From IMG/VR virus record IMGVR_UViG_3300045988_006050: a DNA stretch of 39,849 nucleotides; one strand, 5' to 3'. Shown one piece after another: positions 8,200 through 10,717 of this stretch. The stretch is from a virus. The notes below the pieces were generated by a model. It saw only the letters and a list, made by a program, of their open reading frames with translations, had not been told where the DNA came from and did not search any database. The number at the start of each line of letters is the position of its first letter. Position 1 is the first letter of the stretch. A program made the position numbers and the translations under genes.

Positions 8200-8916
8200 A
8201 TGGCAAACAACAAAGACCCTGCCGTCTTGTTTTACACATCGGATTTCCTATCCGGCTGTGCCTTGATGGATATGCGGGAGCGTGGGCAGTATATCACGCT
8301 CCTGTGCCTCCAAAGAGAGCGCGGGCATATGACGATGCAGGAAATCATACGGGCTGTCAAAAAGCCGTCAGACGAGGTTATGAGCAAGTTTCAGAAGGAT
8401 GAGGACGGCAAGTACTTTAATCGCCGGATGGAGCTTGAAATCGAAAAACGGGACAAACATTGCCAGCGTCAAAGGGAGAACATCAGCAAGCGTTGGAACA
8501 AAGAAAATGATAACTCTGGTATGGCTGATGGTAGTGCTTGCGGTAATACCACGGTATTACCTATAGGAAATGGAAATGGAAATAGAAAAGAGAGTAGTTC
8601 TATTTCTGAGAAGAAACGTAAGAAATTTATACCACCTACGTTGGAAGAGGTTTCCGCATACGCGAAGGAGCGTGGAGTCCAGAATCTGGCACAGAAATTT
8701 TTCGACTATTATTCTGCCGGAAACTGGGTCGACGGGAAGGGTGACCCCGTACGGAACTGGAAACAGAAGTTTTTGACGTGGGAATCGAAAGAACGTGAGA
8801 AGGGCGCGCCGTCACAGCCGGGGAAGAAGCCGGGCTACAACGTGCAGCATCACGGGGACGAGCTGTCCGATGTGCAGCGGGCGGCGATTCAGCGGATGTT
8901 GGGGGAGGAAGCATGA
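8200..8916 (+). CDS. Replisome organizer / replication initiator (N-terminal DUF1376, C-terminal DnaD-like phage domain)
   Basis: PAVLFYTSDFLSGCALMDMRERGQYITLLCLQ (DUF1376-like) and IPPTLEEVSAYAKERG...FFDYYSAGNWVDGKG.PVRNWKQK (phage DnaD/replisome-organizer C-terminus). Confidence 0.75.
   Translation: MANNKDPAVLFYTSDFLSGCALMDMRERGQYITLLCLQRERGHMTMQEIIRAVKKPSDEVMSKFQKDEDGKYFNRRMELEIEKRDKHCQRQRENISKRWNKENDNSGMADGSACGNTTVLPIGNGNGNRKESSSISEKKRKKFIPPTLEEVSAYAKERGVQNLAQKFFDYYSAGNWVDGKGDPVRNWKQKFLTWESKEREKGAPSQPGKKPGYNVQHHGDELSDVQRAAIQRMLGEEA
8541..8601. repeat. Ori-like element copy B inside the replisome-organizer gene (20-bp palindrome + 3x GGAAAT iterons)
   Basis: ggtaatacc-ac-ggtattacc, then ggaaatggaaatggaaatagaaaa. 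Encodes the GNTTVLPIGNGNGN linker. Confidence 0.6.
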
Positions 8917-9155
8917 TGAAGCAGGGAGCCGAGACTTGGATTGTCATACCGGAGCCGCTTCCCATATTCCACCGGCTCATGCCGAAACTCAGAACGCCTT
9001 TAAGGGCGCGGAAGTATCCGCAGAAGATGCAGAACAAGACGTTTTACCTCGTCAGCGTCAAGGACCCGGAGGACGGGCGGTGGAAGATTATCACCGTCCG
9101 GGAACCGGAGTGCTGGGAGGCGGAAGTGACGGTGCAGGTCAGGAGGAAGACATGA
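8913..9155 (+). CDS. Hypothetical protein
   Basis: ATGA coupling. 80-aa ORF. Confidence 0.55.
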   Translation: MMKQGAETWIVIPEPLPIFHRLMPKLRTPLRARKYPQKMQNKTFYLVSVKDPEDGRWKIITVREPECWEAEVTVQVRRKT

Positions 9156-9373
9156 TCAGGCTAAAATACGCCGGACCATGCGGCAGGGATTGCCCGCGAC
9201 GCGGACCGGGCTGTGGGGCTACCTGCGAAGCGTGGCTTGCCTATGAGGCTGAACGGAACGCGGGCTACGACAAACGCGCCAGAATCGTCGACATAAGCCA
9301 GATGACCGATGGCGGGGCGAGAAACTGCCGTAGAGCGGCAAGAGGGAAACGGAAAATAGGAGGGGCGATGTGA
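9152..9373 (+). CDS. Small Cys-rich hypothetical protein
   Basis: AGGAGG SD. ATGA coupling. CGRDCPRRGPGCGATC. Confidence 0.6.
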   Translation: MIRLKYAGPCGRDCPRRGPGCGATCEAWLAYEAERNAGYDKRARIVDISQMTDGGARNCRRAARGKRKIGGAM

Positions 9374-10206
9374 TGCTGACGCATTTGAGTCTGTTCAGCG
9401 GCATCGGCGGGCTTGACCTGGCGGCGGAATGGGCGGGCTTTACGACCGTTGGGCAATGTGAATTTGCAGACTACCAGACGAAAGTGCTGGAAAAGCACTG
9501 GCCGGACGTGCCGCGCTGGCGGGACATCCGGACATTGACAAAGGAGAGTTTTTATGAGCGCACAGGATTGCGAACAGTTGACGTTATTTCCGGCGGATTC
9601 CCCTGCCAGCCCTTTTCCGTGGCTGGAAAGCAAAAGGGAAAGGAAGACGATCGTTACCTCTGGCCGGAGATGCTCCGAGTTATCCGAGAGCTGCGCCCGC
9701 GCTGCGTTGTCGGTGAGAACGTACCTGGAATCATCAAGATTGCCGCCGGGAAAGTGGTCAAGGATTTGGAGCGTGCAGGCTATCACGTCGTCGTGTTTAA
9801 TTTTGAAGCTGCGGCTGTCGGAGCTTGGCACAGGCGGTCAAGGGTGTTCTTCGCCGGAATCGACGAAACTGTTTCCGACACCGAAAGCAAGCGACAGCAA
9901 AGGGAGCGGACCCGCGGGGAGCAAATCGGCGGAACACGATCTTGTGCGTGGAAATCTGCGCGGTGTGGTTTTGTATGCGACACCATGTGCCAGGGACTAC
10001 AGGACTGGACAGCGGGAACGATACGAAAACCCAGAGCGGATGAATGCCCTGAACGATCAGATTGGTGGGCAACTGAACCCGACGTGGACAGAGTGGCTCA
10101 TGGGATTCCCAATCGGGTGGACAGAATTAAATGCCTCGGAAACGCTGTAGTGCCACAGCAGGCATACCCGATTTTTAAGGCACTGAGGGAGGAAGTTTTG
10201 AGATGA
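9373..10206 (+). CDS. DNA (cytosine-5)-methyltransferase (frame A)
   Basis: Motif I LFSGIGG, IV GGFPCQPFS, VI GENVPG, VIII HRRSRVFF, X LGNAVVPQ. The stretch between VIII and X is Cys/Arg/Trp-rich and atypical. Confidence 0.85.
   Translation: MLTHLSLFSGIGGLDLAAEWAGFTTVGQCEFADYQTKVLEKHWPDVPRWRDIRTLTKESFYERTGLRTVDVISGGFPCQPFSVAGKQKGKEDDRYLWPEMLRVIRELRPRCVVGENVPGIIKIAAGKVVKDLERAGYHVVVFNFEAAAVGAWHRRSRVFFAGIDETVSDTESKRQQRERTRGEQIGGTRSCAWKSARCGFVCDTMCQGLQDWTAGTIRKPRADECPERSDWWATEPDVDRVAHGIPNRVDRIKCLGNAVVPQQAYPIFKALREEVLR
9554..10150 (+). CDS. Nested +1-frame ORF (198 codons) encoding a C5-MTase TRD/motif-IX-like sequence
   Basis: AAGGAG SD 7 nt upstream of ATG 9554. C-terminal half reads KLFPTPKASDSKGSGP...ATPCARDY...LNPTWTEWLMGFPIGWTEL. 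Confidence 0.45.
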   Translation: MSAQDCEQLTLFPADSPASPFPWLESKRERKTIVTSGRRCSELSESCARAALSVRTYLESSRLPPGKWSRIWSVQAITSSCLILKLRLSELGTGGQGCSSPESTKLFPTPKASDSKGSGPAGSKSAEHDLVRGNLRGVVLYATPCARDYRTGQRERYENPERMNALNDQIGGQLNPTWTEWLMGFPIGWTELNASETL

Positions 10207-10249: not shown

Positions 10250-10717
10250 ATGACAGACAAGGAAATTATACAGGCGCTGCGTATCTGCGCGACGCATATA
10301 GAGAAGGGTTGCGGGCTTTGTCCACAAATGAAGTATGTGCGTTGCACGGAGCGGCTGGCGGATGAAGCTATCACCATGATCGAGCGCCTGACCGCCGAGA
10401 ATGTGGTGCTCCCGGATGGGCAAGCGAGCGCGATTGAATCGCTTCGAAAGGAAATCGAGTGGAAGGACATGGTGATTGCCCTCGCCCAGAAGGAGCAGGC
10501 GGAGGCAGAAGCCGAGAGGGACGCGCTGCTCGAGATTGCTAAAAATGGAAAAGATTGCGATACGTGCAAAAATTGTGCGGTATGCGTCAAGCCCGGGACA
10601 GACGTTGCGCACTGGTGCGATAGATGTGAGGAAAAATGCCGTTGTTACGGGTGCGGAGGCGACCACTGGGAATGGCGCGGATTGCCGGAAGAGCCGGAGG
10701 GAGGAGAAAAGGCATGA
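10250..10717 (+). CDS. Cys-rich hypothetical phage protein
   Basis: GGAGG SD. Coiled-coil middle region and a C-terminal CDTCKNCAVC...CDRCEEKCRCYGCGG cluster. Confidence 0.7.
   Translation: MTDKEIIQALRICATHIEKGCGLCPQMKYVRCTERLADEAITMIERLTAENVVLPDGQASAIESLRKEIEWKDMVIALAQKEQAEAEAERDALLEIAKNGKDCDTCKNCAVCVKPGTDVAHWCDRCEEKCRCYGCGGDHWEWRGLPEEPEGGEKA

Follow-up and report, generated by a model that had tools for sequence, protein, structure and literature searches.

The layout of M.EcoHK31I, a C5-cytosine DNA methyltransferase (C5-MTase) of Escherichia coli HK31 with the target YGGCCR, was first shown in 1995 (Lee, Kam & Shaw, as reported in PMC2836561 and PMC3404938). In the account given by these two articles, the enzyme requires both an alpha and a beta polypeptide, with beta encoded wholly within the alpha gene in another reading frame; alpha carries the conserved motifs I-VIII plus X, and beta carries motif IX. 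Activity in vivo is lost once the beta start codons are silently removed, and the further beta is shortened from its N-terminus, the less firmly it associates with alpha (PMC2836561, PMC3404938). A second two-chain enzyme, M.AquI (target CYCGRG), is made from two overlapping open reading frames (ORFs) (Karreman & de Waard 1990, cited in PMC3404938). Here we describe a gene pair of this kind in the IMG/VR virus record IMGVR_UViG_3300045988_006050, a stretch of 39,849 nucleotides which is referred to below as the window. Judged from its sequence and that of its relatives, the locus at positions 9373-10206 very probably encodes a heterodimeric C5-MTase, with one stretch of DNA giving both subunits through two reading frames. 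By analogy, its mechanism is most likely that of an alpha/beta C5-methyltransferase of the M.EcoHK31I type.

The outer gene, alpha (frame A), occupies 9373-10206 on the plus strand, starts with an ATG and encodes 277 residues comprising motifs I-VIII, a linker and motif X. It is preceded by the Shine-Dalgarno (SD) sequence AGGAGG at 9358-9363 (plus strand); a second possible start, GTG, lies at 9370, and the TGA stop of an upstream ORF (9371-9373) overlaps the GTG/ATG start. Inspection of the plus strand places motif I (FSGIGG, S-adenosylmethionine (AdoMet) binding, residues 8-13) at 9394-9411, motif IV (GGFPCQPFS with the catalytic Cys78, residues 74-82) at 9592-9618, motif VI (GENVPG, residues 114-119) at 9712-9729, motif VIII (HRRSRVFF, residues 153-160) at 9829-9852 and motif X (LGNAVVPQ, residues 255-262) at 10135-10158, which agrees with the original prediction made from the window alone. 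All five motifs are invariant or nearly so across 63 homologues. The PF00145 profile matches residues 3-174 of frame A (E = 2.7e-38; 132.7 bits against a cut-off of 22), TIGR00675 scores 120.3 bits (cut-off 100.65), and the two matches end at residues 174-178; in PHROGs, phrog_363 matches residues 1-272 (E = 1.5e-80). With both curated cut-offs exceeded and motifs I, IV, VI, VIII and X present, frame A is, by sequence criteria, a C5-MTase.

In the monomeric enzymes M.HhaI and M.HaeIII, a target-recognition domain (TRD) and motif IX stand between motifs VIII and X in one chain, whereas alpha has an unrelated linker at this place, and neither element was detected there with the PF00145 and TIGR00675 profiles. 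The linker, at approximately residues 161-231 (9853-10065, plus strand), is the -1 reading of the recognition modules of beta; it is stop-free and weakly constrained, and its columns display no conservation in the alignment of the 63 homologues. The alpha profile aligns to residues 4-164 of M.HaeIII and, through motif X, weakly and not significantly by itself to residues 299-321. What corresponds in alpha to the M.HaeIII stretch between the aligned parts (about 134 residues) is again this unrelated, length-variable linker.

The inner gene, beta (frame B, +1 relative to alpha), occupies 9554-10150 on the plus strand, encodes 198 residues and lies entirely within alpha. Its own SD sequence, AAGGAG at 9541-9546 (plus strand), stands 7 nt before the beta ATG and within the alpha codons for Lys-Glu; the nested 198-codon ORF and its SD sequence had likewise been predicted and were borne out by inspection. 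Residues 1-101 (9554-9856, plus strand) are overprinted on motifs IV-VIII of alpha, contain many invariant columns in the homologue alignment and are the proposed alpha-docking region; the DNA of alpha motif IV is read as ADSPASPF in beta. The C-terminal half carries two recognition modules of a conserved PTPxAxD type, LFPTPKASDSKG at 9869-9904 and YATPCARDYRTG at 9974-10009 (both plus strand), and the number of such PTPxA(S/R)D modules in beta relatives varies from one to four or more. These are followed by a dual-coded segment at 10066-10131 (plus strand), which reads QLNPTWTEWLMGFPIGWTEL in beta, a motif IX-like sequence, and WWATEPDVDRVAHGIPNRVDRIK in alpha, the lead-in to motif X. Both readings are strongly conserved, with the consensus LNPxWxEWLMGFPxGWTEL in frame B and EPxVxRVAxGxPxRVDRxK in frame A; the xEWLMGFP of beta resembles the ECARLMGFP type and is nearly invariant among homologues. 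Motif X of alpha begins within the final beta codons and extends beyond the beta stop.

The beta start is conserved as well. In most loci the ATG lies exactly 47 nt upstream of the alpha PCQ codons, with AAGGAG, GGAGAG or TAAGGA in front of it at SD spacing, and an SD-like purine run is found before it in nearly all loci. A homologue search returned 1,910 beta homologues, and at E <= 1e-3 the C-terminal half by itself hits 8,755 cluster representatives, the clusters being drawn at 50% identity. The PHROGs family phrog_1008, annotated "DNA methyltransferase", matches residues 2-160 of frame B (E = 4.7e-25).

The pair shares with M.EcoHK31I an alpha chain which has motifs I-VIII plus X but no motif IX, and a fully nested beta chain in the other frame with its own start. 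The chains measure 309 and 176 residues in M.EcoHK31I versus 277 and 198 here, and the beta N-terminus, which serves association in M.EcoHK31I, corresponds here to a region under purifying selection (see below). M.EcoHK31I is part of a restriction-modification system, whereas the gene in the window is an orphan within a phage replication and recombination module. The likeness lies in the gene layout, compared by description, and the mechanism is extrapolated from that layout. As the layout was already known from M.EcoHK31I, the locus is a further case and less novel than first assumed. The original prediction had named M.AquI as the precedent, which holds for a split two-chain enzyme; M.EcoHK31I is the closer one, with beta wholly inside alpha and bearing motif IX. 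M.AquI also has two chains, split in the variable region and encoded by overlapping ORFs. The overlap of its ORFs is short. Its alpha carries motifs I-VIII and its beta motifs IX and X in consecutive order, whereas here motif X is on alpha and beta is wholly nested, so that the two ORFs share about 600 nt.

The same two-frame layout, which is common in phages, recurs among relatives of the locus. Two faecal phage scaffolds with 74-82% nucleotide identity keep both ORFs, and one of them carries a 42-codon insertion throughout which both frames remain open. A frame B scan of viral contigs returned 80 loci. Motif IX is in frame B in 72 of them, and in 70 of these 72 the A reading is uninterrupted from motifs I/IV to a motif X downstream of motif IX; motif X is never in frame B in these loci. 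Species-representative genomes of Oscillospiraceae, Lachnospiraceae (Cuneatibacter, Oribacterium), Bacteroidia, Sulfuricellaceae and Alphaproteobacteria contain the layout in prophages, and the third frame is closed throughout the viral loci and these genomes. In a proteobacterial-type branch, where B begins about 4 nt after A and spans all of A, motif IX was located in 53 loci, and 49 of them have the layout. Homologues do keep both frames open, as had been proposed for checking. Enterobacterial versions have a beta that starts 4 nt after alpha and outruns it, the two ORFs of approximately 245-250 residues nearly coinciding. No homologues routinely bearing stops in B were found.

Finished genomes of cultured phages from five host genera also show the layout, at identities down to <30%. 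The pair of the Paenibacillus larvae phage Shelly (gp55/gp56, with the inner ORF annotated as "g55 internal gene") is homologous to the one in the window: the betas are about 28% identical, the two frames are arranged alike and the start of beta is conserved. It differs in a longer linker/TRD with three or four PTP modules, and no discussion of it was found in the P. larvae phage genomics papers searched. The cultured Lacticaseibacillus phage R23.9 has the alpha/beta layout with the outer gene only annotated. Alpha is likewise the only annotated gene of the overprinted pairs in Salmonella phage S9-5 (Lederbergvirus; L103 898-1645), Bacillus phage yong1 (L104 864-1619), Mycobacterium phage Zerg gp69 (L174 1344-2057) and an E. 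coli PT62 prophage from RefSeq (L085 1398-2157). A conventional single-frame relative with this TRD was sought among 20 long representatives, none of which combines this recognition half with an entire PF00145 domain in one chain; hence the frame switches do not depart from a known normal gene, and the canonical single-frame enzyme reading A, B and A again, against which the locus had originally been measured, has no counterpart in this set.

To estimate how often the frames would stay open by chance, synonymous codons were resampled according to the codon usage of the window with the protein of one frame held fixed. The +1 frame (B) was open from 9554 to the end of motif VIII in 1.0% of trials when the A protein was kept, and the -1 frame (A) was open across the C-terminal half of B in 0.5% of trials when the B protein was kept. 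The earlier estimate of a few percent for each frame was thus right in calling this rare and slightly generous in its figure. Across 19 divergent lineages the median probability was 0.3% for B being open given the A protein and approximately 0 for A being open given the B protein, yet both frames are open in every lineage. The third frame is closed, its open stretch measuring 78 codons in the window, with a range of 4-127 codons among relatives.

Selection was assessed on 15 phylogenetically independent pairs, with every possible and observed change classed by its effect in A and in B, changes that create stops excluded, and the synonymous divergence (dS) of the A-only parts (0.445) taken as the neutral proxy. 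Over motifs IV-VIII of A and the N-terminal half of B, changes silent in A and altering B occur at 0.40 of the neutral rate (bootstrap confidence interval 0.28-0.55; Fisher p = 1e-17), and those altering A and silent in B at 0.12; the former class is below neutral in 13 of the 15 pairs. Over the A linker and the B recognition modules the corresponding values are 0.22 and 0.52, and the two classes differ within this region (Fisher p = 3e-8), with B the more constrained frame. Over motif IX of B and the A lead-in to motif X they are 0.18 and 0.095. Constraint is thus dominated by A upstream and by B in the middle, and is tight in both frames over the last ~65 nt. The substitution counts show purifying selection on both frames. 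In some pairs, such as L049/L053 and L029/L033, the TRD region is identical and the N-terminal part has diverged substantially at synonymous sites, a pattern that suggests recombination swapping modules inside the gene.

In the mechanism we propose, alpha would contribute the AdoMet-binding and catalytic motifs I-VIII, a stop-free loose linker, the conserved lead-in and motif X, parts which in monomeric enzymes of solved structure together build the large catalytic domain. Beta would be translated in the +1 frame, beginning at its own SD sequence and ATG within alpha. Most likely it docks to alpha through its N-terminal ~100 residues, and its C-terminal ~95 residues, with two PTPxA(S/R)D modules and the motif IX-like LNPxWxEWLMGFPxGWT, would form the small DNA-recognition domain absent from alpha. 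The two chains would then assemble, recognize the target sequence and methylate cytosine at C5.

Several results weigh against this reading of beta or temper it. The label "TRD and motif IX" for frame B, given in the original prediction, rests on motif-level resemblance, on the PHROG matches and on the M.EcoHK31I analogy. Pfam and NCBIfam gave no match to frame B or to its C-terminal half joined to motif X, so that the profile check proposed for both frames succeeded for residues 3-174 of frame A and failed for frame B; even on a stitched A-B-A chimera, PF00145 and TIGR00675 fail on the B part, and nothing in Pfam or NCBIfam matches past alpha residues 3-178. Sequence searches of the PDB with beta profiles built from a close and from a diverse set returned no meaningful match. 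An hhalign comparison of the beta alignment, which is too shallow (effective number of sequences, Neff, 1.8), with an M.HhaI sequence, residues 14-176 of which were verified, gave no match either. By these profile, PDB and hhalign comparisons, beta has no detectable sequence similarity to the small domain of monomeric C5-MTases. AlphaFold2 models reached a mean predicted local distance difference test (pLDDT) score of 41 for beta (35 sequences) and 40 for alpha (63 sequences), and are unusable, the alignments being too shallow. In published accounts of M.EcoHK31I, the predicted TRD is on alpha, whereas here the recognition-like modules are on beta and the alpha linker is nearly free, so the division of labor may differ between the two enzymes. 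Finally, mosaic recombination may confound the comparison of substitution rates between regions, for which reason the within-region comparisons are the safer ones.

The lack of a profile or structural link between beta and the solved C5-MTase small domains would also suit a beta that is translated and conserved for another job, for example as a regulator or an anti-defence protein, rather than as a methylase subunit, and beta is indeed a very large family of its own with free-standing copies (L092). We consider this improbable. Alpha has neither a TRD nor motif IX and its linker is weakly constrained, therefore alpha alone is unlikely to recognize DNA; beta bears the motif IX-like xEWLMGFP and TL-like PTPxA modules. 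Among the loci examined, beta was nearly always overprinted on a C5-MTase alpha; L092, with its free-standing copy, departs from this, as do a small number of truncated or unresolved loci. Motif X is fused to beta in the type-2 variants described below. The PHROG families that match beta are annotated as DNA methyltransferases, and M.EcoHK31I provides a precedent for a beta chain that is part of the enzyme.

The order of the motifs across the frames (A, B, A) could alternatively reflect two programmed ribosomal frameshifts, +1 near 9855 and -1 near 10130, that would yield a single polypeptide with motifs I-VIII, the TRD, motif IX and motif X, and a few A/B chimeras in the databases (L091, P0376) could be taken to support this. 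Such frameshifts are more doubtful still. They would leave B before 9855 and A between 9855 and 10130 untranslated, yet both parts are stop-free (probability about 1% or less per lineage) and under purifying selection, and this includes the motif IX segment as read in alpha, where the rate is 0.095 of neutral. A conserved SD sequence and ATG belong to beta itself, neither a stop nor any other obvious stall signal is present in frame A at the junction, and the position of the junction shifts with insertions of TRD modules. M.EcoHK31I, the characterized relative in layout, makes two chains as described in PMC2836561, and the chimeras are rare, with about two in a set of roughly 150 examined loci and proteins, and derive from metagenome assemblies.

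Some conservation of B must follow from the constraint on motifs IV-VIII of A, which would also be seen if frame B were open by chance or composition as a non-functional shadow of a conserved gene; we judge this very unlikely, given that B is open in 1% of the resampling trials in the window (median 0.3%), yet open in all lineages, that B is the more constrained frame in the C-terminal half (0.22 vs 0.52; Fisher p = 3e-8) and that the SD sequence and ATG are conserved. A pseudogene or assembly artefact with two compensating indels in an ordinary single-frame methylase gene, a reasonable prior for one metagenomic sequence for which nothing specific speaks here, has a negligible probability against an identical frame structure in independent assemblies and in finished phage genomes from five host genera, with no single-frame relative among the 20 long representatives. 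Among the explanations offered in the original prediction, the overprinted pair and the split two-subunit MTase are therefore the ones retained: both frames are open across roughly 150 loci, selection acts on both, and the beta SD sequence and ATG are conserved, all of which refutes recoding and compensating indels.

Variant relatives further illustrate the two-chain arrangement. In "type 2" relatives, alpha ends about 25 residues past motif VIII and beta continues into its own lead-in (PRVxxGxPxRxxRLK) and motif X; examples are L166 (alpha 1461-2048, beta' 1501-2442) and the proteins P0264, P0282, P0301, P0351, P0364 and P0374. Motif X is placed in these relatives (L166, P0264, P0282) as in M.AquI, yet the genes are fully overprinted. 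In sequence terms, motif X can be said to have moved between the chains during evolution, which fits separate, assembling chains, since a motif X on either chain is as expected if the two chains assemble. The two motifs that share the dual-coded segment 10066-10131 in the window are encoded in type-2 relatives by separate DNA, one after another. We had also considered phrog_1008 as a sign of a protein with beta and motif X in a single frame and rejected it, as its match to motif X is too weak (E = 0.08); the type-2 sequences later confirmed the idea independently.

A free-standing beta-like gene of 248 residues, with four PTP modules and LNPDWVEWLMGYP, was observed at 2198-2944 of L092, a Bacteroidia metagenome-assembled genome (MAG; OZ244977). 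A nested pair (alpha 1296-2171, beta 1504-2073) adjoins it, with the free-standing gene downstream, and no alpha frame overlaps the latter. Its N-terminal similarity to nested betas (E = 0.09) is merely suggestive, and it may be an alternative specificity subunit for the adjoining alpha. Three further sequences depart from the layout: in L091 (766-2393, from a Lachnospiraceae MAG) a 1-nt frame switch joins the N-terminal part of alpha to the C-terminal part of beta, the protein P0376, one of the 20 long representatives, is an A/B chimera with a frame switch at motif IV, and L136 (1467-2640) has a stop within the alpha linker. All three are probably assembly errors (indels) or decaying genes.

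The methylase gene is accompanied in the window by genes for a Sak-like annealing protein, a RecE-like exonuclease, an HNH protein, a single-stranded DNA-binding protein (SSB) and a primosomal protein, and no restriction endonuclease partner was identified among the 10 neighboring ORFs scanned against PHROGs. As the gene thus lies in a phage replication and recombination module with no restriction gene detected nearby, the likely role of the methylase is to protect phage DNA from host restriction. Directly 3' of it, at 10250-10717 (plus strand), is an ORF of 155 residues rich in Cys motifs (CGLCPQ, CDTCKNCAVC, CDRCEEKCRCYGCGG), which matches nothing but a PHROG family of unknown function, and that weakly. 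Upstream, two candidate ORFs at 8795-9373 and 8913-9155 (plus strand) overlap each other. The TGA of the longer one (8795-9373) over the GTG/ATG of alpha suggests translational coupling; its N-terminal half resembles an out-of-frame reading of the adjoining genes, so the true start of the gene is probably an internal one.

Neither Pfam nor NCBIfam has a model for beta, and annotations almost always omit it: alpha alone is annotated in most of the phage and prophage records inspected; gene callers retain one of two same-strand overlapping ORFs. Cloning or activity prediction from the annotated alpha alone would probably give an enzyme that is inactive or non-specific. Naturally split methylases already serve as platforms for targeted methylation, as PMC2836561 describes, and the overprinted alpha/beta family offers thousands of variants for such engineering. 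With about 600 nt read in two frames and measurable purifying selection on both, the pair is also a clean case of dual coding over a long time, rich in data and useful for testing tools for overlapping-gene detection. How broad and how old the overprinting is may be under-appreciated, as may the dual-coded segment and the lack of beta in annotation and family databases; in a limited literature search, no paper was found on the family-wide breadth of the overprinted pair.

For the biology of these phages, the methylase is likely an anti-restriction enzyme whose specificity appears to reside on a small modular subunit able to gain or lose PTP modules and to recombine. Tentatively, and with slightly less than an even chance of being right, we propose that the C5-MTases of phages and prophages include a very large, old clade made up entirely of obligate alpha/beta enzymes with beta overprinted on alpha. 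Its span covers phages of Firmicutes, Bacteroidota, Proteobacteria and Actinobacteria, including P22-like phages, Spizizenvirus of Bacillus subtilis and cluster-type mycobacteriophages. If this is true, few same-strand overlapping gene pairs of bacterial viruses would be as widespread and as long-lived as this one, and beta would be a specificity subunit that can be exchanged, varies in its number of modules and occasionally occurs as a free-standing copy. Motif X would then be mobile between the chains, and a single segment of DNA would encode motif IX for beta together with the lead-in to motif X for alpha.

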